This document shows, piece after piece, positions 203 to 36,465 of a stretch of 36,465 nt of DNA. Below the pieces are notes generated by a model. That model was not told the origin of the DNA. It worked only from the letters and a program-made list of their open reading frames with translations, and made no database searches. A program made the translations under genes and the position numbers. The DNA is from a virus (taxonomy: Duplodnaviria; Caudoviricetes): the IMG/VR virus record IMGVR_UViG_3300022181_000006, positions 1 to 36,465 of that record. The stretch is one strand, 5' to 3'. The stretch's first letter is position 1. Every line of letters begins with the position of its first letter.

Positions 203-958
203 CTATTTTCGTTTACTTCCCTTTTTACGTGAACCTCTGCTGAATTGCTCTCCCGTGATAGCCCGTTGGCTTTTCATGAAAGCCTTAAGATCCTTCAACT
301 GCTGGTCTTTGTCGGGGTCTGGATCCACAAACGGGGATTTACATTTCTCCCGGATTATCTCATCCGCACATTGATCAATCTCGAGTTTTCTGCCAAGAAT
401 TTTGTCACGAAGGGCAAGTATCTTCAGACGATAAGTACCTTTAAACCGATCAATGGACATTGTTGAAAGTTGAATAAGACCAAAAGCGATAATATCATTT
501 GCATAACTGAGTCTTTCCCTTAGTTCTCTAAGTCTACGCATTCTTAAGTTATTCAGACGCATAATTCTAATATTGAATTGGCCCGTATGTGTTAATGCAT
601 CCAAGCGAATACCATTTAATTTTAAATGATCTCGTGGATCATGTTTATCCGGTCTAAGTATAATATTACCCAATTTATCATCCAAATCATTTGGATAAAA
701 TGAACCTTTATTACTGTTACAAATTCGACATGAATAGAGAAGATTTGAATAATCAGAAGCTAAGTGAGGAAAATGTTTTTGTGGAAAATAGTGATCAATT
801 TCAAAGCTGATTGCATTAGCCTCAGCCTCTGTAATAAAACAATATGCACATGTATACCAAAAATCGTGACGAAGAAATTCTCTGTACATTGTATAGTCTT
901 TAGTTGGCTCGACAGATGATCTTTTTACAAGAGCTTTATTACTATTTTGTTGAGTCAT
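203..958 (-). CDS. HNH endonuclease (CxxC...HNH...CxxC type)
   Basis: CAYC, EIDHYFPQ, NLLYSCRICNSNK motifs; ATGA overlap with upstream gene. Confidence 0.85.
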   Translation of the reverse strand: MTQQNSNKALVKRSSVEPTKDYTMYREFLRHDFWYTCAYCFITEAEANAISFEIDHYFPQKHFPHLASDYSNLLYSCRICNSNKGSFYPNDLDDKLGNIILRPDKHDPRDHLKLNGIRLDALTHTGQFNIRIMRLNNLRMRRLRELRERLSYANDIIAFGLIQLSTMSIDRFKGTYRLKILALRDKILGRKLEIDQCADEIIREKCKSPFVDPDPDKDQQLKDLKAFMKSQRAITGEQFSRGSRKKGSKRK

Positions 959-1488
959 TTTTTTCTAGTCCCAAGTTGGACGGAGGTCAATTCTCTCATA
1001 ACTTTTTCTATGTCCTTTGAAAAACGCTCATAGCCGACAACGATAGTTTCAAGGCGGTCAAGTTCTTCACCGGACTCGGCATCTTCAATATTATCTAATT
1101 GCCAGCCAACCAATGCAAAGCGCCTTTCCTCCTTTTGGGACAGTCCAGTTCGGGATTTTTTCAGTGCTAAAACCCGATATTCCTCACGCAATTGTTCGAC
1201 TGCCTTTTTGGAAAATTTCTTGGCTGCTTCACGGCTCATTTTTCTGATCTTTGCTCGATCGAAGTAGTCTGGAGTCGGCAGCTCCCGAAAGAACGATTGC
1301 GTGAGATCACGAGGCTCGCCCTCCTGTACTTCTCTCTCTGCATCAAGTCGAAGGCCTCCAATTTTTGTAATGACATCAGAGGAATGCGACAATTCCTTGT
1401 GACTCCTCCCGGTCTCCAACAAGTCTCGCTGGGCAAGAGTTGACAAATCATCGATATCGGCGGTTCTTAGAGTTGATGACTTACTCAT
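955..1488 (-). CDS. hypothetical protein, charged helical; middle gene of three-gene operon
   Basis: 177-aa ORF overlapping both neighbours (8-nt and 4-nt overlaps); AT-rich like neighbours. Confidence 0.75.
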   Translation of the reverse strand: MSKSSTLRTADIDDLSTLAQRDLLETGRSHKELSHSSDVITKIGGLRLDAEREVQEGEPRDLTQSFFRELPTPDYFDRAKIRKMSREAAKKFSKKAVEQLREEYRVLALKKSRTGLSQKEERRFALVGWQLDNIEDAESGEELDRLETIVVGYERFSKDIEKVMRELTSVQLGTRKK

Positions 1489-2245
1489 AGATGAGATCTC
1501 CTTCTCCTATCTTTTCAAAATAACCCAAAGCACGATCCAAGCATTCCCGAAATTTCGTGCGAAAAGAGTTGGAGCTGAGTGAAGACGGCTCATTGTATAC
1601 TCTTTGCCAGTCAAGAACTAACTTAAATCCTGCTTCCTTTTTATCCTCATTATATTCCACATGGTGGTGACACCGTTCAAAAAAGCCTTCTCCTTCGTGA
1701 ATTCTGGCTGTGAGTCTAACTTGAAATTCCGAAAGATCTGTGCCCCAAGGCTTTGAAAGATGAGTCATCAATCTCGATACCCCTGGCGGCAAATTATCAT
1801 GATCAAGCTCAATTGTAGCTACGATACCAATAAAATTGAGATCGATGCCTTTTATGCCATCAAATATTGTGAGTAGCTCCATGAATTCTGCCTCAGTAGA
1901 GGCAATAAGATCACTATACATTTGGACATCAGGAAACGTAACGACAGGGAATGCTCCAGGGAGCTTTTCTTCCTCGACTTGATAATTGAAGCCTATAGAC
2001 ATGCGATTTCTAGCTATTTTATATGTGTAATCATCGGCATTTATTTCACAAGCCGATTCTTTTTTCTGGTTTACTTTCCATTTCTTATGTTTTGCAGCGA
2101 TATTGTCAAAAAATTTAGACAAGTGATGATTCAAATTAAGCACTATACTCAATGGCATATTAATACTTATTCCTATTGTAGGGACAGCCAAAACACCATC
2201 TATCCATGTCATCTCATCACCTCGCAATATGAAGTTCACTTTCAT
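1481..2245 (-). CDS. hypothetical alpha/beta protein, TIGR04255-like by pattern (start may be the second Met)
   Basis: 254-aa ORF; FIGIVATIE and LVLDWQ segments recall the RIGLRYIN / LDxD pattern of TIGR04255-type proteins; family call tentative. Confidence 0.6.
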   Translation of the reverse strand: MKVNFILRGDEMTWIDGVLAVPTIGISINMPLSIVLNLNHHLSKFFDNIAAKHKKWKVNQKKESACEINADDYTYKIARNRMSIGFNYQVEEEKLPGAFPVVTFPDVQMYSDLIASTEAEFMELLTIFDGIKGIDLNFIGIVATIELDHDNLPPGVSRLMTHLSKPWGTDLSEFQVRLTARIHEGEGFFERCHHHVEYNEDKKEAGFKLVLDWQRVYNEPSSLSSNSFRTKFRECLDRALGYFEKIGEGDLIYE

Positions 2246-2391
2246 GTGGCAAATCGCCGCAATAAACGCCTAGATACAAAGATCTCACCTGCGCTGATTG
2301 TAGCCCACAGTTGACTTTGCCTATTTTACAAATAACTTGGGCAAAAATTCCAACATCACAAAAAAATCTCAAAACAAAGATTATTTGGGAT

Positions 2392-2420
2392 ATGATATTT
2401 CACAGATCGATGATTGTCCA
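2392..2420 (-). promoter_or_regulatory. putative sigma70 promoter for the three-gene HNH operon
   Basis: minus strand TGGACA (2420-2415), 17 nt, TATCAT (2397-2392). Confidence 0.5.
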
Positions 2421-2469
2421 TATGAAAATCCGTTGCATTTTTATGATGTTAACATGTGGGACACGATAA

Positions 2470-4134
2470 TCACCACATAGCGGCCTGGGCTGGTTGTTCA
2501 CCAAACTCCTTCGGTGCCTGTTTGAAGGTCCTGCGGATAGGTGGCATTTGGACAAAGGCGCCTTTGAGCAGCTCGTCCACAGTGAGGATCTGAAGTTTGG
2601 GGTATTTCTTCCCCCAACCGGATTCATAAAACCCGGCAGAAGCGGCTTCCGTTTGCATGTCTTTTGTGGGCGACTCAAGGGTCATGAAGACGCCAATGCA
2701 AGCATTCTCGCGGTCCATTGTACCGCGCAGATCGCGAATATCTCCGCTCTTGACATGGCCACTTTTGACCTGGATCAAAACCTGTTTCGGGGTTGCTTTG
2801 GCGTCATCCTCAAATGAGATTATTCCGTCTATCCCCTTATCCTTGCCCTTTTTGCCTTTTTTTGAATCCTGCTGGCCGCCGATTGGTTTGGCTTGCACCA
2901 GGGAAAGCGCCCACCATTGGAATTGGTAGCGATTTTCACTCGCCAACTGACGTGCGGACGCAAGGTCGGTGGGTTCGCCAATAACCCTATAATCCTTGCC
3001 TGGAGTCAAAGCGAACATTGCTTCCAGACGGTATTTCTGCAACGCGATAGCCAAGTTGGTGATGTCGATGCCAATCCATCGCCTTCCAAGTTTTTGAGCA
3101 GAAGCGATAGCTGTTCCGCAGCCGCAAAATGGATCGAGGATTATTGAATCCTTGTCGCTGCTGGCCATAGTAATACGATCGAGCAGTGCAATAGGCTTTT
3201 GCGTAGGATAGCCCAGCCGTTCAGCAGCCTGCGCGCCGATGGGAGGAATATCATCCCAAATGTTTTGCAGTCGCTCGCCCGGGCTCTCGTCAGCATACAT
3301 CCTAAGACGCAAGGCGCCTCCCGGCTTAGAAGGAAAATGCAGCTTCTTCTCAGCGTCATATTGCTGGAGGCGCGCCAAATTGCATGACCAGCCATTAGGG
3401 TGAGGTTGGTAAGTGACGCCATTACTAGCGGTATAGGGGAAATGTAGGTTCGGGCGTGGACCCGGATTCCTCAAGGTGACCGACTGCCAGCGTCTTCCGT
3501 CCGGATCGTAATGGGGATATTTTCCGATTACTTCTTTTGCTGACAAACCGGCAAAAGGTTGGTTCCAGAGGTATGCATCCGTCTTGGCGTAGAAAAATAA
3601 AATATCTGAGATGCTTCCATAATTTCGACCCACATTCCCGTGCGCGAAGGTTCTTTTCCAAGTGATCTCATTTCTGAAATTCTCGATCCCAAATATTGTA
3701 TCGAGGACGATCTTTAGATAGTGACTGGCGGTGGGATCGCAATGGAGGTAAATGCTCCCGGTGGGTTTGAGCACGCGGTGCAGCTCGATGAGGCGTATGG
3801 TCATCATGACCAGATAGGCCATCATCTGGTTTGTGCCGATGAATTCCCGGAGGGCGCCTATCATCCTTACCACCCTGGGCGGGGCATCATGAATCAATTC
3901 GTGGTAGGTTTCTTCGGCGGCCATGTTCCAATGCCAGGAATCCTCGAAGGCCGTGATCTGAGCTTCCGATTCCTGGCCACTCTCGTCTTTGAAGAGAACA
4001 TTGTACGACCTGTTTGAGTTGAACGGAGGGTCCAGATAGATCAGGTCGATGCTGTTTGATGGAATATGCTCCCGCAGAATCGGCAGATTGTCGCCGTAGA
4101 ACAGTGTGTTCTGGGTGATTGGCTCGGGTGGCAT
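2470..4134 (-). CDS. beta-class N6/N4 DNA methyltransferase fused to C-terminal Mrr-like PD-(D/E)XK domain
   Basis: IYLDPPFN catalytic motif, YPTQKP, ILDPFCGCGT SAM motif; C-terminal DKGIDG...IQVKSG. Confidence 0.9.
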   Translation of the reverse strand: MPPEPITQNTLFYGDNLPILREHIPSNSIDLIYLDPPFNSNRSYNVLFKDESGQESEAQITAFEDSWHWNMAAEETYHELIHDAPPRVVRMIGALREFIGTNQMMAYLVMMTIRLIELHRVLKPTGSIYLHCDPTASHYLKIVLDTIFGIENFRNEITWKRTFAHGNVGRNYGSISDILFFYAKTDAYLWNQPFAGLSAKEVIGKYPHYDPDGRRWQSVTLRNPGPRPNLHFPYTASNGVTYQPHPNGWSCNLARLQQYDAEKKLHFPSKPGGALRLRMYADESPGERLQNIWDDIPPIGAQAAERLGYPTQKPIALLDRITMASSDKDSIILDPFCGCGTAIASAQKLGRRWIGIDITNLAIALQKYRLEAMFALTPGKDYRVIGEPTDLASARQLASENRYQFQWWALSLVQAKPIGGQQDSKKGKKGKDKGIDGIISFEDDAKATPKQVLIQVKSGHVKSGDIRDLRGTMDRENACIGVFMTLESPTKDMQTEAASAGFYESGWGKKYPKLQILTVDELLKGAFVQMPPIRRTFKQAPKEFGEQPAQAAMW

Positions 4135-7957: not shown

Positions 7958-10200
7958 AATCCGACCTCACATATTCAGCCAAGGACCTTGCGGGGATACT
8001 CAGTATTACCGACAGGGCCGTTCAGAAGCGCGCCGAAAAGGAGAAGTGGTCCTTCGACCAGGTCGACAACCCCAGAGGCGGCGGGCGGCGCAAGTTGTAC
8101 CGGCTGTCCTCGATGCCGAAGGCAATCAGGGATTCGGTCGCGGAATACCAACTGAGGAATGCCCTGGAGAGGAAAGCCCAGGCTTCGCCCGATCCTCTCG
8201 CCCTGGTGCCGGTAAACGGCCGCGCCGTACACGCCAACGCCAACGGTACCGTGAGTTCGCTCCCGGCATCGGCCCCCATCATCCCCGACAAAGCCCGGGA
8301 AATCGGCCTCGCCAAATACCGCCTGGTGCGGGAATGGCGCGAGGTCGTCTCCCAGCAGCCCTGGAGCAAGCGGGGGGCCGCAACCGAAGCGTTTCTACTC
8401 GCTTACGGCTCCGGCCGGCTGCTCCCGGACGTCTACAGGAAAATCGGCGAGATATCCGACAAGACCCTCTACCGTCTGGACAAGCAACTCAGGGATTGCG
8501 GGGATGACTATTACGCAATCTCCGACGGCCGCGGCGGCTGGCGACGGCACGGCACGAACAAATGGCGGCCACGCACCATCAGCCGGGAAGCCCAGGAGGA
8601 GTTCCTGCGGTGCTATCTGCGGCCGGAGCGGCCCAGCGTCACCCTCTCCATGCACGCCGCCAGGATGATCCTCGCGAACCAGGGCGTCGCCGAGGAAAGC
8701 TCCGATGCGACTTGGAGACGGTGGCTCAAAGACTTCGAAAAACACCATCAACACGTCCTGGTGCTCGCGCGCGAAGGCGAAAAAGCCTACCGCGACAAGA
8801 TCGGGACGTACATCACCAGAGACGACAGCCTGCTTGAGGTCGGCCAGGTCCTGGTCGCCGACGGGCACGATCTCAATTTCAACATTTTGCACCCCCAGAC
8901 CGGCAAGCCGGTCCGCATGAAGTTGATCCTGTTCTTCGATTGGGCGAGTCGCATGCCTGTCGGCTGGCAGATCATGCCGACCGAAAACTCAATCGCCATC
9001 CAGGCGGCCCTCCGCAATGCCATTCTCACGCTGGGAAAAATCCCCCAGTGCGTTTATCTCGACAACGGCAAAGCCTTCAAATCCCGCGTGTTCACGGAGA
9101 CGAATCCGGATCTTCGCGATTTGGCCGGTCTATACGCCCGCCTCGGGATCGCCACGGCCTTCGCAATGCCCTACAACGCCCGCGCCAAGGTGATCGAGCG
9201 CTATTTCCTGACGCTGACCGCACAGTTCGAGCGGCTCATGCCGACCTACTGCGGATCGAGCATCGCCGACAAACCCGCCTGGATGGCCCGCAACGAAAAG
9301 ATGCACCGGGCCTGGCACATGGCACGAACCCAGGGCTGGGTGCCGAACGTCCGGGAAGCCGCGCACATGTTGTCGCTTTTCTTCCAGTGGTACGGGAACC
9401 AGCCGCACGAAGGGCTCAACGGCCGAAAGCCGCTCGAAGTCCTTGACGCCGGCCGCGGCCCCGGCGTCGATCCGCACGATCTGAACGCGCAATTCTTATG
9501 GTTGAAGAAAGTCAGGCCAAGCCGATGCCGGATCACCCTGTACACCGTCGAATACGAATCCGACTGCCTGCACGGGCTCTCGGGAGACGTGATCGTAAGA
9601 TACGACACATCGGATTTGAGCGTCGTCCACTGCTACACCACCGACGGCGCCTACCTCGGAGACGCTCGCCCCGTGCAGGCGCTCCACCCCCTGGCAAGGC
9701 TCTTCGGCGACCAAGTAGGGGTCGACCAGGTGAAATCGGAGCTGGAACGCCAGCGCCGCCTTGCCAGGCAGACCAGGCAGAACCTGCTCCAGCTCGGGGC
9801 CTCCACGGCGGACGTCGACGGGTTGAAATCGCTCCCCTGGAACCGGAAAGCGGCGGTGCTCCCCGGCGGCAAGGGCGATGCGCTTCCAGGCGTGGCCGAC
9901 GACAAGGCGGAAGCGGAAGAGCGCACGCGCCTGGAACTGGTCTACCGCCGCGACGTGGAAAACGCCCCGGTCGAGCCGCAGAAACCGAAGCTCGAACGCC
10001 CGGAGCACTTCCGATCCGAAGCGGCCCGCTACGACTGGTGCTTTCGCGCAAAACACCAGCACGGCGAGGAGCTCTCCGGCGAGGACGCCGCCTTCATGAC
10101 CTACTTCGAGGCGACCGGCGAATATCGCGAGAACTACCGGCAGCGCTACTCGGATCTCGCGGAGCTCTACGCGCTGCACGGCGAATCCGCGAAGAACTGA
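7954..10200 (+). CDS. MuA-like DDE transposase
   Basis: N-terminal Mu DNA-binding HTH (YSAKDLAG...RAVQKRAEKEKW); VADGH / YLDNGKAF / KVIERYF DDE triad; Mu C-terminal domain VIVRYDTSDLS. Confidence 0.95.
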   Translation: MKSDLTYSAKDLAGILSITDRAVQKRAEKEKWSFDQVDNPRGGGRRKLYRLSSMPKAIRDSVAEYQLRNALERKAQASPDPLALVPVNGRAVHANANGTVSSLPASAPIIPDKAREIGLAKYRLVREWREVVSQQPWSKRGAATEAFLLAYGSGRLLPDVYRKIGEISDKTLYRLDKQLRDCGDDYYAISDGRGGWRRHGTNKWRPRTISREAQEEFLRCYLRPERPSVTLSMHAARMILANQGVAEESSDATWRRWLKDFEKHHQHVLVLAREGEKAYRDKIGTYITRDDSLLEVGQVLVADGHDLNFNILHPQTGKPVRMKLILFFDWASRMPVGWQIMPTENSIAIQAALRNAILTLGKIPQCVYLDNGKAFKSRVFTETNPDLRDLAGLYARLGIATAFAMPYNARAKVIERYFLTLTAQFERLMPTYCGSSIADKPAWMARNEKMHRAWHMARTQGWVPNVREAAHMLSLFFQWYGNQPHEGLNGRKPLEVLDAGRGPGVDPHDLNAQFLWLKKVRPSRCRITLYTVEYESDCLHGLSGDVIVRYDTSDLSVVHCYTTDGAYLGDARPVQALHPLARLFGDQVGVDQVKSELERQRRLARQTRQNLLQLGASTADVDGLKSLPWNRKAAVLPGGKGDALPGVADDKAEAEERTRLELVYRRDVENAPVEPQKPKLERPEHFRSEAARYDWCFRAKHQHGEELSGEDAAFMTYFEATGEYRENYRQRYSDLAELYALHGESAKN

Positions 10201-29236: not shown

Positions 29237-31879
29237 ATGGCGGAAAACAGGGTCCAGATTGTGATCACCACGGACAACCGGGGAGCCGTCACCGGCATCC
29301 GCCAGGTGGGGTCCGAGCTGGATCGGATGGGCGGATCCGGGGCAAATTCCGTATCCAGCCTCGATAGAGGCTTCACGTCGCTGAGTGGAACGCTGAAAGC
29401 CACCCTCAGCCTGGTCATGGGTTTCACGGCGGCATTGGCGGGAGGTTTGGAACTGACGGCATTCGCGCGAGACTTGGTGCATACCGCCACCGCTCTCGAC
29501 ACAATGAACAACAAGCTGAAGTTTGCCGTCGGGAAAGAAGAGGCCGCGCGATCGCTGCAGTTCTTACGGGAGGAAAGCCGGCGCCTGGGCCTCGATATGA
29601 TGACTGCCGCAGATTCGCTGGGCTCATTTTCCGCCGCCGCTCGCGGCACCTCTATGGACGTGCAGACCATAAGGCAAGTTTTCCTTGCCGTGGCCGAAGC
29701 TTCCACGGTGATGGGCTTGAGCAACGAGGAAGCCAAGGGCGCAATGACCGCCCTCTCACAAATCATGAGCAAGGGGAAAGTCCAGGCAGAAGAGCTCAGG
29801 GGCCAATTGGGCGAGCGACTGCCCGGCGCCTTTCAGATAGCCGCCCGCGCCATGAACATGACCACGTCGGAACTCGACAAGCTTATGTCCGACGGCAAGC
29901 TGATCGCCTCCGATTTTCTGCCCAAATTCGCGGCCCAACTCAGATCGGAGCTTGCCGGATCGGTGAAGGATGCCGGCAACTCGACCAGGTCGGAACTCAA
30001 CCGGCTCTCAAACGCCTGGCTCGACCTCAAGCAAGCAATGCTCGATGCCGGATTCCTCTCGACAATCACCGAAGCATTGCAGGCATTGGCGGCTGGGGCA
30101 CGATCCGGTGCGGCCGCCATCAAAAGCCTAAAGGAGACCACAAAGGACTGGCCGATCGGGATTTTCGACATCCTCCGTCCGGGAGGAATTCCCGGGGCCA
30201 TTGGCCAATACGTAGGCCGGAAGGCTCGAGATACGTTCTTCCCGCAGCCGTCCCAAGGACCGGTACGGCGTCCGATCCAGGTCCCCGAGATAATCGGACA
30301 GTACAAGTATGATCCCGAAGAGGCCTTCTACGCCGGGCTAAAAGGTGCGCAAGGACGGGCGGCACAATTCCTCGATGACCTGGGCAAGTGGGCCGAATCC
30401 GCAAAGGAGAAAACCAAGCCCGCTTGGCAGGAACTGAGGGAAAACCTGGCAAAGACCGACCAGGCATTGGCTTATGGCAAGATGACGACCGAAGAAGCCG
30501 GCAATGCTTACAAAAAATACTGGCAGGACTATGCCAAGACCGCCAAACCCAAAGGCGCCGCCTCCGGCGCATCCCCCATCGACATCGAGGCGATCGACAG
30601 GGACATCCTCCAGTTCCGCGAAAAGATGCAAAAGCTCTACTCCGAGCTCGAAGATCTCGACTCCGAATACCGGATCGCCCGACTCGAACAATCCGGGCGC
30701 TTCTACGACGCCGAAGCCGAGCGCCTGGACCGACAGGCCGCAAAGCGCAAGGAGGCCTTCGCCAAGGAGGTTGCCGACGCCGAGCAGGCGTACCTGGAGA
30801 TGGAGCAGAAACTCTCCGGGGGCCGGGGCGGAACCGCCGAGGCGTGGGCTCAGCTTGCCGAGCTTAAAAGCAAATGGGATGCCGCAAAGAAAGCGGCCCA
30901 GGAATACGGCGATAAGATCGACCGCAACCTGCAGCTCACCAAGGACGTGAAAAAGGCCGAAGACGACGCCAAGCGCGCCGAGGATCTCGCCCAACTGAAC
31001 CTCGAATACGGCAAGCTCACCGGCACCCTCCAGGAGCAGCTCGCCCTCCAGATCCTCTTGCTCCGGGCCGAAAAGGACCGAAAGCTCCTCGCGGCCGACC
31101 CGGCCCTGCGCGCCGCCGTCGAGCGCAACTACGCCGCGATGGAAAAAGAGCTTATCATCGAGCGCTCCGGCTCCTTTTGGGACAACTTCTTTCTTGCGGC
31201 CGAGAAATACAAAAGAACCCTTCCCGCCATCGGCCAGATGGGCAAGAGCGCCTTCGAAACGCTCGTTCGCGGCATCGAATCCGCCTCCGACGCCCTGGCC
31301 CAGTTCACCATGACCGGGGAGATGGATTTCGAGAACTTCTCCAATTCGATCCTGCGAGACATCCTGCGCATGCAATACCAGGCCCTGCTCACGCAGATGA
31401 TCCTGGGGTCCGCCGGGTCGGCCTCCGGAGGCGGCGGGATCCTCGGGTGGATCATGGACCTTTTCAAGGGCGGCGGGATGACGACGGCGAGCGGCCGCTA
31501 CTGGGACAGCAGCATGAATTTCTACGAGCATCACTCGGGCGGGATCGCCGGAGGATCGGGGTCTTCGACCAGGAACGCCCCGGCGTGGTTGCTATCCCGC
31601 GCCCCGCGCCTCCACGACGGGCTCGCCCCGGATGAGTTCCCGGCGATCCTGCAGCGCGGCGAGCGCGTGCTCTCGCGCCGCGAAACCCGAGAATACGGCG
31701 CCGCAAACCGTGCCCCGGAGGTCGTCGTGAACGTCCAGAACAAGACGAACACGCCGGTCACGGCGGAGAAGACCCGCGCGGCCTTCGACGGCAAACGCTA
31801 CGTGGTCGACGTGATCCTCGACGACTACAGCCGCGGGGGAGACGTCTGGAAGATGATCAGGGGGAACCGCAATGGCTGA
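29237..31879 (+). CDS. tail tape measure protein
   Basis: 880 aa Ala-rich helical; ALSQIMSKGKVQAEELRGQLGERLPGA domain; lambda-type DALAQFTMTGEMDFENFSNSILRDI; DEFPAILQRGERVL. Confidence 0.95.
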   Translation: MAENRVQIVITTDNRGAVTGIRQVGSELDRMGGSGANSVSSLDRGFTSLSGTLKATLSLVMGFTAALAGGLELTAFARDLVHTATALDTMNNKLKFAVGKEEAARSLQFLREESRRLGLDMMTAADSLGSFSAAARGTSMDVQTIRQVFLAVAEASTVMGLSNEEAKGAMTALSQIMSKGKVQAEELRGQLGERLPGAFQIAARAMNMTTSELDKLMSDGKLIASDFLPKFAAQLRSELAGSVKDAGNSTRSELNRLSNAWLDLKQAMLDAGFLSTITEALQALAAGARSGAAAIKSLKETTKDWPIGIFDILRPGGIPGAIGQYVGRKARDTFFPQPSQGPVRRPIQVPEIIGQYKYDPEEAFYAGLKGAQGRAAQFLDDLGKWAESAKEKTKPAWQELRENLAKTDQALAYGKMTTEEAGNAYKKYWQDYAKTAKPKGAASGASPIDIEAIDRDILQFREKMQKLYSELEDLDSEYRIARLEQSGRFYDAEAERLDRQAAKRKEAFAKEVADAEQAYLEMEQKLSGGRGGTAEAWAQLAELKSKWDAAKKAAQEYGDKIDRNLQLTKDVKKAEDDAKRAEDLAQLNLEYGKLTGTLQEQLALQILLLRAEKDRKLLAADPALRAAVERNYAAMEKELIIERSGSFWDNFFLAAEKYKRTLPAIGQMGKSAFETLVRGIESASDALAQFTMTGEMDFENFSNSILRDILRMQYQALLTQMILGSAGSASGGGGILGWIMDLFKGGGMTTASGRYWDSSMNFYEHHSGGIAGGSGSSTRNAPAWLLSRAPRLHDGLAPDEFPAILQRGERVLSRRETREYGAANRAPEVVVNVQNKTNTPVTAEKTRAAFDGKRYVVDVILDDYSRGGDVWKMIRGNRNG

Positions 31880-32224: not shown

Positions 32225-32836
32225 GTGAAATCCATCCCCGCCGTGCTGGTCCGCGAGAAGAACAAGCTGGCCACGCCCAACCCGTGGATCGTGCTCCTCG
32301 ACATCGTGCTCGATGCGACGCACAAGCTCTATTTTTGCAGCAACAACCAGAACGTCACCTGGAGCGGCCGGGTTTATACGGCCTTCCCGTTCCTCCTGGA
32401 GGCCACCGAGGAGAACAGCAAGGGGGAGATCCCGTCGGTGTCCCTCAAGGTCGCAAACGTCACGCAGGTGATCCACGCCTACCTGGAGCAGCTCGACGGC
32501 GCCGTCGGGGCGACGGTCACCATCCGCGTGGTGAACGCCGGCTACCTTTCCGAGGACGCCTCCGAGCTGGACATGACCTTCACGGTGGTCTCGACTTCGG
32601 CCGACGCCGAGTGGATCGTCTTCACGCTGGGAGCGCCCAACCCCTTGAGGCGCAGGTTTCCCCCGTTCCGGTTCATCGCAAAGCACTGCCACTGGGAATT
32701 CAAGGGCCATGAATGCGGCTACTCCGGGGCCTTCGCGGATTGCGACCGGAGCTTCGAGAACTGCGAGGAGCGGTCCAACACGCGCCGGTTCGGCGGCTAC
32801 CGGGGCCTCTCCGAGAAGGGATGGAGGGCGGCGTGA
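32225..32836 (+). CDS. minor tail protein L-like
   Basis: GTG start; YTAFPF; C-terminal CHWEFKGHECGY...CDRSFENC Cys cluster, RFGGY. Confidence 0.85.
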   Translation: MKSIPAVLVREKNKLATPNPWIVLLDIVLDATHKLYFCSNNQNVTWSGRVYTAFPFLLEATEENSKGEIPSVSLKVANVTQVIHAYLEQLDGAVGATVTIRVVNAGYLSEDASELDMTFTVVSTSADAEWIVFTLGAPNPLRRRFPPFRFIAKHCHWEFKGHECGYSGAFADCDRSFENCEERSNTRRFGGYRGLSEKGWRAA

Positions 32837-33315
32837 TGCGAGGACCATGCGGAACCCTGCCATCCGGCATTCCGGCAACCCACGGGTCGCTCACCTACGT
32901 CGATCTTCTGGGCAAGCCCTTCGAGCTCGGCGGGCGCGGGCCGGACGCCTACGATTGCTACGGCCTGGCCGCAGAAATCCGCCGGCGGGTCGGCCGCCCC
33001 ATCCCGGAGGATTACACTCACGGCCGGGACGCTCGAAGCTGCCACCTCGAAATCGCGCGGGCCGCCGCGGTCTGCTTTGTCGAGCTCGCCTCGCCGGAGC
33101 CCTTTTGCCTGGTAAGCTTCCGGATCGTTGCGCCCTTCACGTCGCACATCGGAGTGGTCCTGGCCGACCGCTTCCGGTTCATCCACATCATGCGCGGATG
33201 CCGCGTGGCCGTCGAACGGCTCGATTCCCCATCCTGGCATCACCGCATCACGGGGTTCTGGGAAATGAGGAACTGCCAAGATGGATCTTTCAAGCACAAA
33301 AGAGCGGGGGAATGA
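32836..33315 (+). CDS. NlpC/P60 tail protein (gpK-like)
   Basis: GKPFELGGRGPDAYDCYGL, HIGV, FIH. Confidence 0.9.
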   Translation: MRGPCGTLPSGIPATHGSLTYVDLLGKPFELGGRGPDAYDCYGLAAEIRRRVGRPIPEDYTHGRDARSCHLEIARAAAVCFVELASPEPFCLVSFRIVAPFTSHIGVVLADRFRFIHIMRGCRVAVERLDSPSWHHRITGFWEMRNCQDGSFKHKRAGE

Positions 33316-33462
33316 TTCCCCCGCACCCCCCAGGTTTCGGCCACACGCGCAAGCGCGTGAGGCCGAGTGCTCGGCGCTGTCGGCGACCGGCCGAAGGCCG
33401 CCGCCGCAGCGCCACACGAAGCCGCGAAGCGGCGCGGGGGTGTGGGGGACACGTCCCCCACG
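33304..33462. repeat. REP/REPIN-like multi-hairpin palindromic element
   Basis: inverted terminal units GGGGGTGYGGGGGA-hairpin enclosing three internal hairpins, two with GAA loops. Confidence 0.75.
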
Positions 33463-33559
33463 CTTTTAGAGTATCATTTTGAACGCAATCCGTATCAGAC
33501 GTTTTTCGTAGCTCTTCCCGGACCCTGGGAGACAACAGCTTACAAAAGAAAGGGGCGAT

Positions 33560-33712
33560 ATGCTGTCCAAACTGAAGGGGCTGATCGCAAAATGGATCAT
33601 CCAAACCGTCATTGACGACTACAAACGCGGCGGCCCCATCTGGCGGCTGTTGAGAACCGTCGCGCGGTGCGAGTCGAGAGCTTCCCGACATCTTTCCAAC
33701 GGAGATCGTTGA
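33560..33712 (+). CDS. 50-aa protein resembling the tape measure C-terminal motif (not in ORF track)
   Basis: aaagggg RBS; MLSKLKGLIAKWIIQTVIDDYKRGGPIWRLLRTVARCESRASRHLSNGDR; TGATG coupling to next gene. Confidence 0.65.
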   Translation: MLSKLKGLIAKWIIQTVIDDYKRGGPIWRLLRTVARCESRASRHLSNGDR

Positions 33713-36465
33713 TGGCCGGCGACATGGACGATAAATCCCTCATTCCCGTTCCCCCCGGGCACCTGCGGGTGGTGTGCGTCGATCACCCGTTCCGGAGATC
33801 GGAGCGGCGCATCGACCTCATCGAGTGGAAGCCGGGCATGACCCTGGCCTGCGTGGTCGATGCCCATGTGCCGGAAGGTCTCCCGGTCAAAGTCTTCCTC
33901 GACGGCGTGGAAATCGCCCCCGGGGACCGCGCCCGGGTTTATCCCATGCCCGGCAGGCAGGTGCTCATCGTCCCGGAGCTGGGCTTCGACGACGGATTCA
34001 AGGGCATCCTGCGGTTCATCCTCCAGATCGCCCTCGTGGCCGCGGGCTTTATCATGCAGGCGATGGGCGTGCCGGGCTGGCTCATTTTCGGAACCATGCT
34101 CGTGGGCGGCATCCTCATCAACGTCCTGCTTCCTCCCCAGGCCCCCAAACAGGCCGATACCGCCCTCGACAGCCAGGCCTACAACTGGGCGCCCCAGAAC
34201 ACCGAGCAGCAGGGAGTCCCGGTCCCGCGCTGGTACGGCAAAAACCGCATCTACGGCAATATCGTTGCAAGCCACATCGAAAACCGCGACTCAACCCAGA
34301 TTCTCAACGCCCTCATCTGCCTGGGGCTCGGCCCGGTGAAAAGCCTCGGGGATTTCCGCATAAACGACCAGGCGGTCAAGCACTTCAAGGCCGTCCACGT
34401 GCGCGCCCGCTACGGCCGCCTCAACCAGGAACCCATCGCCGACTTCAAAAAGACCAAGATCGAATACCCCGCCTCGGTCAAGGTGGTTTACGGCTCCCCG
34501 TACACCTACACGACCGTCGGAAACGATTTCGACGCCCTGGAAGTCGATATCTCCTTTCCCGAAGGGCTCTGGCATTACCCGCCCGAAAGCTCGGGTCTCG
34601 AAGGCTTCGCCGTCCGGTTCCAGGTCGCGGTGCGAAAGGTCGGAACCTCCGAGTGGCATCACATCGCCCGGCAGCCCTCGGATGTTGCCGGCTACAACAA
34701 GGTGTTCGTCTCAACGGCCCGCTGGTCCCTGGGCAAATGGGTGGACCCGGGAGCCGATCCCGACTGGACGGGGCACGAAGGGGCGGACGTCTGGTTTGAG
34801 AACCTCGCCGGAACGTCCGGGTTCTACGACCACTACGAAGGGGAGGTCTACCCCGACCAGACCGAGCTGTTCTGGCACTGGATCGGAGACGACGGCGGCG
34901 AGTACGTCGCCACGTCGACCGATACCTACGAGGTCTGGCAGGATTATTTCGACGCCTTCGGCCAGAGCGAGAAGCCCAGGCACTGGACCATGCGCTACAA
35001 GGTGCCGGACGGCCAAAAGGGGCAATACCAGGTCCGGGTGACGCGGGTGACTCCCACGGCCACGCCCCAGAACCGGTACGGCCAGGACATGTACTTTGCA
35101 GGCGTCGCCGAGGTGCTGTGCGACCCGTTCGAATACCCCCGGCACGTGCTCGTGGCCGTGAGCGCCCGGGCAACGGATCAGCTCTCGGGGTCGCTTCGGT
35201 TTTCGTGCGTTGGAGAGATGGCCGTGGTGCGGGTCTATGACGGATCGAGCTGGAGCATCGAGTACTCGACCAACCCCGCCTGGGTCGCCTACGACATCCT
35301 GAGCCAGCCCGTGATCGGGGGCGCCGGCACGGAGGCCAATCCCTACGCGGTCCTTCGATACGACGGTTTGCCTCCCGAGCGCCTCGATGCGCCGAAATTC
35401 CTGGAGTGGGCGCAGTATTGCGACCAGAAGGTGAGCGACGGCACGGGATCGCCCTTCAGCACGGCCATCGCCTACGCCGTGGACGACCGGGTGCGCTACG
35501 CGGGCCGGATCTATAAGTGCATCCAGGCCACCGCGGTGCCTTCGCCCCCTCCCACGGACACGGCCTACTGGGCGATAACCAACGAAGGGCTTGAAAAGCG
35601 CATCACCTTCAACGGCGGCTTCGACTACGACACGTCCATGTGGGAGGCCGTGGCCAGGGTCTGCCAGGTGGGCCGCGCAATCCCCGTCTGGAACGGCTCG
35701 AAGCTCACCGTCGCCATCGATAAGCCCGCCGATCCCGTGAACCTCTACACGGTGGGAAACATCGAGGAGTCCAAATTCCGGGAAATCTTCCTGCCGCTCG
35801 AGGAGCGGGCGACGGAAATCGAGGTCGATTTCATCGACGGCGAAACCTGGGAACGGGACAAGCTCACGGTCTACCGGCCCGACATCGCGCGATCGACCGG
35901 GTACCGGGCGGCGATCGAGCTCTTCGGAGTGACGAAGCGAAGCGAGGCGTGGCGCGCGGGCATGTTCCGGCTCATGTGCAACAAGTATTTGATCCGCACC
36001 GTGGAGCTCGATCTCGACGTCGAAGCCGTGAACGCGGACATAGGAGACGTGGTCCACATCCAGCACGACGTGCCCCAGTGGGGCGAAGGGGGCAGGATCG
36101 CCCCGGTCCTTTCCTTCACCTCCGGAGGCCCGTATGAAATCAAGCCGGGAGACACCGTCATCGGGGGAACCTCCTGGGCCACGGCGCGGGTCGCGGCCGT
36201 CGAGACGACGTCCGGGTCCTGGGCCGCCGGCACGGCCGCCGGCCGCCTCACCCTGGCCGAGCAGACCGGGAACTTCGTCGCCGAGGAACTCAACGTGCTT
36301 GAAAACTTCGACGTGGCCACGGTCATCGCCTCCCGTGTGACCCTGGACAAGGCGGTGAGCATCGAGGCCGGGCTCACCTACAAGGTGATCGCGCGGCTCT
36401 CAGACGACGCCCTTGCCGAGCGGATCGTAACCAGTGAGCCCGGATCGCACGAGACCCTTGCCGTT
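33712..36465 (+). CDS. tail tip protein, gpI-gpJ-like fusion (host specificity), truncated by window end
   Basis: frame from ATG 33712 appears open to the window edge (hence absent from the ORF track); PVPRWYGKNRIYGN, YSTNPAWVAYDIL, WAQYCDQKVSDG, GDVVHIQHD..GGRI. Confidence 0.9.
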   Translation, partial: MAGDMDDKSLIPVPPGHLRVVCVDHPFRRSERRIDLIEWKPGMTLACVVDAHVPEGLPVKVFLDGVEIAPGDRARVYPMPGRQVLIVPELGFDDGFKGILRFILQIALVAAGFIMQAMGVPGWLIFGTMLVGGILINVLLPPQAPKQADTALDSQAYNWAPQNTEQQGVPVPRWYGKNRIYGNIVASHIENRDSTQILNALICLGLGPVKSLGDFRINDQAVKHFKAVHVRARYGRLNQEPIADFKKTKIEYPASVKVVYGSPYTYTTVGNDFDALEVDISFPEGLWHYPPESSGLEGFAVRFQVAVRKVGTSEWHHIARQPSDVAGYNKVFVSTARWSLGKWVDPGADPDWTGHEGADVWFENLAGTSGFYDHYEGEVYPDQTELFWHWIGDDGGEYVATSTDTYEVWQDYFDAFGQSEKPRHWTMRYKVPDGQKGQYQVRVTRVTPTATPQNRYGQDMYFAGVAEVLCDPFEYPRHVLVAVSARATDQLSGSLRFSCVGEMAVVRVYDGSSWSIEYSTNPAWVAYDILSQPVIGGAGTEANPYAVLRYDGLPPERLDAPKFLEWAQYCDQKVSDGTGSPFSTAIAYAVDDRVRYAGRIYKCIQATAVPSPPPTDTAYWAITNEGLEKRITFNGGFDYDTSMWEAVARVCQVGRAIPVWNGSKLTVAIDKPADPVNLYTVGNIEESKFREIFLPLEERATEIEVDFIDGETWERDKLTVYRPDIARSTGYRAAIELFGVTKRSEAWRAGMFRLMCNKYLIRTVELDLDVEAVNADIGDVVHIQHDVPQWGEGGRIAPVLSFTSGGPYEIKPGDTVIGGTSWATARVAAVETTSGSWAAGTAAGRLTLAEQTGNFVAEELNVLENFDVATVIASRVTLDKAVSIEAGLTYKVIARLSDDALAERIVTSEPGSHETLAV

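Follow-up and report, generated by a model that had tools for sequence, protein, structure and literature searches.

The question raised by this locus is why a phage should carry, directly before its tail-tip gene, a small open reading frame (ORF) whose product resembles the end of its own tape measure protein (TMP). The window, i.e., the whole stretch of DNA which was analysed, is a virus record of 36.5 kb (36,465 nucleotides) from a Mu-like transposable phage, with genes for a transposase, a transposition protein and Gam. Its tail-tip genes are arranged in the lambda-type order TMP-M-L-K-(I-J) (Table 1). The gene downstream of the ORF had been read as I-J, and this was borne out by profile matches of its residues 95–335 to lambda gpI 102–211 (E 1.1e-6) and also to lambda gpJ 19–145 (E 1.1e-7). 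Since the nearest named relatives were prophages in Syntrophobacter assemblies (L 74–79% identical), and since two such genomes each gave 45 matches to the repeat which precedes the ORF, Syntrophobacter is likely, from these sequence matches, to be the host of the phage.

Table 1. Features of the tail-tip region, with positions in the window.
Feature	Position	Strand	Basis or remark
Tape measure protein (TMP), 880 aa	29237..31879	+	TMP_3, Tape_meas_lam_C
TMP end: final 22 conserved codons, model for the copy	31796..31861	+	alignment
gpK-like NlpC/P60 gene; final ~13 codons MITE-derived after 50-bp deletion	32833..33315	+	
Host MITE-like element	33277..33494	.	inverted repeats at its ends, target duplication of 3 bp (TNA), strong hairpin
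Swappable cassette: ORF and first four I-J codons	33510..33723	+	edges in X6, X2, L125, L016
Ribosome-binding-site-like AAGGGG, 4 nt before ATG	33550..33555	+	sequence
50-codon ORF	33560..33712	+	ATG start; stop TGA 33710-33712 overlapping ATG at 33712
22-codon TMP-end copy (codons 11-32); predicted helix, Gly-Gly-Pro turn, short helix	33590..33655	+	
gpI-gpJ fusion (cut by contig end); start overlaps ORF stop	33712..36465	+	

The TMP of the window is a mosaic, of which residues 429–880 are 95% identical to L016 and the first 430 differ (L017 and L125 were also compared); its length of 880 aa stands against 1053–1058 aa in relatives. The gene cluster at the left end of the window (203–4134, minus strand) encodes a PtuB-like HNH nuclease and an N6/N4 methylase fused to an Mrr-like domain; two further genes of the cluster are of unknown kind.

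The ORF occupies a stop-to-stop frame of 66 codons with an ATG and a stop of its own, and does not belong to any full-length TMP as its terminal part. A ribosome-binding site and a TGATG overlap with I-J had been described from the sequence, and both are present (Table 1); the overlap joins the ORF stop to the I-J start, in late-operon position and on the sense strand. The overlapped ATG is the start of I-J, since the second ATG of that gene reads ACG in three runs. A GGAG belonging to I-J is found at 33701–33704, within the ORF, and the ribosome site of I-J falls in a predicted hairpin, not more stable than those of shuffled sequences, which upstream translation could open. The promoter scan found no sigma-70-like promoter between 33200 and 33800. 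Codon scores were 0.49 bits for codons 1–10 and 0.33 bits for codons 11–32, the in-frame mean being 0.37; off-frame windows with scores of 0.33 bits or above made up 0.2%, and codons 33–50 scored like off-frame sequence. Codons 1–10 look like coding sequence, and their resemblance to the TMP is weak at best. The sequence-only reading had proposed a copy of 50 amino acids: the copy of the TMP end is real, and judging from codon usage it is likely that only about 32 codons are gene-like and that codons 33–50 are a read-through linker to the I-J start, which is narrower than was claimed. Amphipathicity of residues 2–22 was not above that of shuffled sequences (P 0.29), and no family match for the ORF was obtained in Pfam, PHROGs or PADLOC.

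Comparison by BLASTP of peptide residues 11–32 with TMP residues 854–875 showed an ungapped alignment with 8/22 identical positions, as had been stated, and 18/22 positive ones (E 2e-7). The raw score of 75 was reached by none of 20,000 shuffled peptides against the TMP (mean 28, maximum 59); when 300 shuffled peptides were compared with the six-frame translation of the window, the best reached 68, and the next best real segment of the window scored 38. A search with a profile of TMP C-termini had been suggested as a check. The profile was built from 58 distinct TMP ends, including the phage's own TMP end and excluding the peptide, and it found the ORF with E 6.5e-5 among 20,059 six-frame segments of the window and 90 loci; outside the TMP class, E values below 1 were otherwise given only by a duplicate of this contig and by one contig-truncated TMP end. 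Repetition with 136 sequences (72 distinct TMP ends) gave the same result. When the peptide was compared with these 72 ends, scores were 75–76 for its own clade, 57 for the next and 30.5 in the median. The clear homology omits the conserved xFDG of the TMP family; however, MAFFT can align residues 4–7 weakly to this motif, with an insertion of two residues, and the head of the ORF may therefore be TMP-derived as well. Residue T16 of the peptide is in a TMP column which is 96% hydrophobic.

At the DNA level the copy is identical to the TMP end in only 37/66 positions (56%; 10, 16 and 11 of 22 for the three codon positions), and it is thus not a recent duplication, in agreement with the earlier argument from its many substitutions. 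Neutral decay of the phage's own TMP end was likewise ruled out: when that end was mutated randomly to the same 29 differences, the similarity was kept in 0 of 200,000 simulations. The stretch has therefore diverged under protein constraint, either as a free gene or inside an unsampled TMP. The TMP ends of the own clade are nearly invariant, yet the copy differs from them at 14/22 places, nearly all conservatively. A decayed 3' fragment of another TMP gene had been named as a refutation; neutral decay of the phage's own TMP end is rejected, and capture from an unsampled TMP is a somewhat unlikely origin.

The nature of the copied segment can be judged from tail tips of known structure. With a profile of the last 60 residues of the TMP, the only match in the PDB below E 1 was Sf11 gp18 718–770 (E 0.009); no match was obtained in the PDB when the short alignment A3 was used as the profile. 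In the Sf11 tip (PDB 9OCC), according to PMC12724387, gp18 residues 749–780 are modelled in three copies and are embedded in the tip. Counted along the profile alignment, residue 749 aligns to W12 of the peptide, and so the clear homology of the copy begins where the tip-embedded piece begins. The corresponding piece of lambda and T1 is described as a three-helix bundle resting on the gpI tripod (PMC10721106, PMC12617516, PMC11945409), with only three of six TMP ends resolved in the lambda tip, and the TMP end of JBD30 is alike (PMC11445458). The closest known counterparts of the ORF are the tip-embedded TMP ends of Sf11 gp18 (749–780), T1 gp38 (921–956, 9L9P), lambda gpH 818–849 (gpHC) and the last 33 residues of JBD30 gp46. 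With that of Sf11 it shares sequence family and boundary, and the type of tip, M-L-K-I-J, is common to these systems. A helix-turn-helix is predicted for the ORF peptide. Unlike all of these, the ORF is a separate, optional gene with its own start, neither a TMP end nor a cleaved piece of one.

AlphaFold2 modelled the peptide as a helix (2–22), a turn and a second helix (26–35) with pLDDT 93, the input alignment consisting almost wholly of TMP ends; the last 60 residues of the TMP itself folded poorly (pLDDT 55). Foldseek returned four rows, among them 9occ_M with E 6.1 and an rmsd of 0.8 over 19 residues, which is not significant alone. In a comparison with 48,161 chains (VIA), T1 TMP gp38 921–956 was at the top (Z 4.2, rmsd 2.9 over 36 residues), tied with unrelated helices; neither fold search is significant by itself, but TMP ends come up in both. 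Taken together, the sequence evidence supports a separate and diverged copy of that part of the TMP which is seated in the tail tip of solved relatives, and there are signs that it was constrained as a protein.

The ORF is absent from all three close relatives in which the place could be scored (L001, L002 and L125; flanks 91–97% identical); a fourth close contig stops inside K. The slot between K and J holds a C5 cytosine methylase in L001 (6049–7082; flanks 97% identical) and the MITE-like element plus 85 bp in L002 and L125 (flanks 91–94%). The methylase overlaps both the K stop and the J start, and the coupling of the ORF to I-J is thus not special. K abuts J in 71/84 locus rows, duplicate contigs included; gaps of more than 150 bp were found in 7 rows from 5 contigs, of which the window is one and 4 are within its clade. 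X6 has the cassette without the MITE, and 28 letters of its flank, the other upstream flank of the ORF, are covered; one X2 contig has a different filler of about 385 bases. The edges of the cassette could be placed at 33510–33516 on the left, where X6 has a loose end at 33510 and the match to L125 stops at 33516, and at 33724–33727 on the right, where X2 has a joint to 33724 and the match to L016 resumes at 33727. Phages lacking the ORF have 93–97% identical I-J DNA. Comparison with L001, L002 and L125, which are assumed to be viable, suggests that the ORF is dispensable for the virion. A tip plug or chaperone, which had been proposed as one possible role, is ruled out if it is meant to be essential, since these near-identical phages build the same tip without it.

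The element upstream of the ORF belongs to an abundant MITE-like family of Syntrophobacter (L102–L111) of about 220–230 bp, whose inverted ends begin with TAC; a 3-bp TNA target duplication was present in 6/12 of the copies inspected. Its RNA fold had a z score of −7.9, matches in Rfam were all sub-threshold, and read depth was 250–1700 versus 2–30 for phage genes in two runs. In the window, a 50-bp deletion (33262–33315) took away the left end of the element and, with it, the original end of K. Other insertions were seen in tail operons of this collection: another small element, ~70 bp long, inside the right end of the MITE (L002, about 2503–2572), ~four tandem 163-bp copies across the K end and J start (L096, about 8960–9610), an extra gene between K and J in the tail-tip operon of a distant relative (L060, 5698–6141), an extra gene between TMP and M in a distant relative (L005, about 600–1200), and a long insert which splits the match to the L gene (L011, 630–1990; L013, 930–1590; L101). 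The repeats encoded by the L011 insert are presumably LamG-like.

Homologues beyond near-identical alleles, which came from four metagenome studies, were not found in any of the sequence searches. In a database of 5.8 billion entries, the single candidate for the single-protein query was the ORF itself, and with alignment A3 as query only the ORF held up among 13 candidates. A phmmer search with codons 1–33 against 1.84 billion representatives returned only the query, and the ESM Atlas held no homologue beyond the ORF; tblastn against INPHARED gave a single match with E 9, and the JGI metagenomes yielded only the contig of the window. Scanning IMG/VR with a degenerate motif produced four matches, three of them TMPs of the own clade and one unrelated. 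A donor TMP was not recognized among nine candidates from a search of longer proteins, which was a weak one. Matches in 12 of 96 Syntrophobacterales genomes were all in frames of 277–1053 aa, and those in 5 of 401 genomes sampled from the phylum in frames of 305–1050 aa; the DNA of the cassette had only chance-level matches of 20–54 nt in 81 genomes of the family. For a motif of 22 residues such searches have limited power, and the null results mean that homologues were not found in the collections searched. In several Syntrophobacterales genomes (L117–L120, L122–L124, L137) the C-terminal motif was noted in short TMP-like genes (open frames of 277–346 aa), and these may mark clusters of tailocin or GTA type with short tails.

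Alleles of the ORF were obtained from 4 of 24 listed runs, one per study across four studies, and a possible source was left out; no RNA run was among those listed as carrying the ORF. Five contig pieces span the ORF or most of it, and four extend at least 38 bases into I-J. Among the differences listed, which are few and at low depth, no stop or indel occurs in any of the four studies. The changes listed are L5M, I14V, Q15L, V17I and I27V plus three silent ones; V14, I17 and V27 are the residues of the phage's own TMP, and the allele I14V-Q15L-V17I was present in three studies and in P0002. Q15L is in a TMP column which is 0% hydrophobic. Adenine-directed, DGR-like variation was considered, with 6/8 of the differences involving an A. 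Amino-acid changes were conservative in 4/5 cases (P 0.001–0.003, in a test picked after the changes had been seen); without L5M and I27V, each present on one contig at a depth of <5, the figures are 2/3 and P about 0.04–0.06. X2 record 3 shows 21 differences and one gap, mostly outside those listed; in all, the list leaves out 28 rows of differences. The changes are in three clusters, and the dN/dS of 0.6–0.7 is not significant; constraint could also have acted while the stretch belonged to a TMP. Syntenic homologues and purifying selection had been suggested as a check: the alleles are intact among the differences listed, whereas synteny extends to near-identical alleles only and selection did not reach significance.

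Several known systems invite comparison. Tab and Tai are tail-assembly blockers which are encoded on the opposite strand with promoters of their own and expressed in lysogens (PMC10884400, PMC11364771). Sensitivity to Tab maps to the C-terminal part of the TMP, and anti-Tab of Pseudomonas phage JBD26 is described as a small, late, −1-overlapped and dispensable counter to Tab (PMC10884400). The ORF is, like anti-Tab and AtiEcA of phi80 (PMC11364771), small, dispensable and situated in the late operon, and it shares with anti-Tab the −1 overlap with a neighbouring gene; the role of guarding the own tail assembly, which these have, is by analogy proposed here for the ORF. Unlike them, it is located between K and I-J and adjoins no partner defence gene, only the MITE being seen upstream in the window; terS and terL, too, adjoin in the window with no gene intervening, unlike the Tab/anti-Tab and Tai/Ati pairs. 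The ORF is homologous to a TMP end, whereas no such homology is reported for anti-Tab or Ati in the accessible sections of those papers. DSAD1 imitates the tail tube protein and traps DSR2 by filling its pocket (PMC10973363); it is, like the ORF, a small phage protein which mimics a tail protein, the trapping role being a proposal for the ORF, but the ORF mimics a different tail protein and does so as a sequence copy of the phage's own. If the decoy reading is right, the ORF would be akin to anti-Tab and DSAD1 in its way of working; it is a member of neither group, nor a TMP. No stand-alone TMP-end gene was found described in the main text of open-access papers, which agrees with the earlier statement that no system of this kind was known.

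Four explanations were weighed. The sequence-only reading had thought of a peptide blocking the tail tips of competing phages; made in the lysogen, it would occupy the tips of superinfecting relatives and bar their TMP, a Tab-like outcome by mimicry. Optional genes in tail operons are often expressed in lysogens. Tail assembly is a proven target of defence, as Tab and Tai show, and the upstream MITE or the flank in X6 could supply a promoter invisible to the scan. Tab and Tai would concern the same assembly step; the ORF, however, is on the sense strand inside the late operon and has no promoter detected, and its closest target is the phage's own tip, with no antidote in view. An expression as blocker in lysogens is for these reasons the least probable of the four. 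An assembly helper, made one to one with I-J, might occupy for a time the place of the TMP on the gpI tripod, or stay there as an extra plug, and improve tip assembly without being essential. The copied segment rests on that very tripod in lambda and T1, as the published structures indicate; the ORF is coupled to the gene which supplies the tripod, and half of the TMP ends in the lambda tip, three of six, are not resolved. Against this stand the phages which have nearly the same I-J DNA and no ORF, and the many loci in which K directly abuts J, so that a helper is regarded as improbable.

More weight was given, though it is still doubtful, to a relic: the 3' end of the TMP of an unsampled sister phage would have recombined into a slot that tolerates junk, and the peptide would do nothing. 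On this doubtful reading, the fragment would owe its translation only to the start codon which it carries and to its part in keeping up translation of I-J. The absence of the ORF from the close relatives and from every other locus searched fits a relic, as do the contents of the slot elsewhere (MITE, nested second repeat, tandem copies or methylase), the non-coding look of the last 18 codons, the perhaps TMP-derived head, and the predicted hairpin at the I-J ribosome site, which upstream translation could open although it is no more stable than shuffled sequences. However, neither the IMG/VR scan, nor the longer proteins, nor phmmer revealed a donor TMP, and no remnant of an M gene follows the copy. 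The near invariance of own-clade TMP ends, set beside the mostly conservative differences of the copy, also speaks against it, and a fragment captured by chance would have to come with an ATG in frame and a ribosome site, and to be cut just at the docking segment.

The explanation placed slightly ahead of the relic, and further ahead of the helper and the blocker, in that order, is that the peptide is a late decoy against Tab-like proteins which bind the TMP end, and would soak up such an inhibitor or a sensor; it is put forward tentatively, at less than even confidence. It was preferred because Tab ties an inhibitor to the TMP's C-terminal part and is countered by a late, dispensable gene, and because DSAD1 is a trap by mimicry. 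From position and strand, we infer that the ORF suits something needed during tail building, with a conditional benefit or none. As a decoy, this optional late gene would provide a free copy of the last 22 conserved residues of the TMP, likely translated with I-J; the peptide would be made only late in lytic growth, within the tail operon, and a short free peptide could outnumber the three TMP ends required per tip. It might bind a Tab-like protein from a co-resident prophage or from the host, by analogy with the known systems, and the real TMP could then dock. Divergence would have kept the surface facing the inhibitor and weakened docking to the own tip, so that own assembly should not be poisoned. 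Avs18, the sole sensor whose target on a TMP has been mapped, recognizes a central segment and not the end (PMC13581612); the partner of the decoy would therefore be of another kind. The missing homologues beyond near-identical alleles and the lack of an adjoining cognate defence gene count against the decoy, as do the non-significant dN/dS and the two residues (T16 and, in the allele, L15) at odds with the hydrophobicity of their TMP columns.

The feature is real and was correctly described, although its extent and its conservation are both smaller than the first reading had suggested. If it should be a relic, it would show no more than that a tail operon can contain a slot which tolerates junk. 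Tail assembly is nucleated by the TMP end, of which only three copies are docked, and defence can therefore target it cheaply; among described inhibitors, Tab alone has been linked to it. The docking segment as a free copy would be a ready bait for TMP-end binders and would suggest a design rule, namely, late expression of the last 25–35 residues of a TMP. A broader notion, which we regard as rather doubtful, is that phages spin off the tip-docking end of the TMP as a mini-gene wired to the tip gene and thereby gain a self-derived decoy against inhibitors or sensors of the TMP end. If this were true, the spin-off would have been caught early, with phages with and without the gene coexisting. 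Syntrophobacter would then hold an undescribed defence which binds the TMP end, and the peptide could be used to fish it out.
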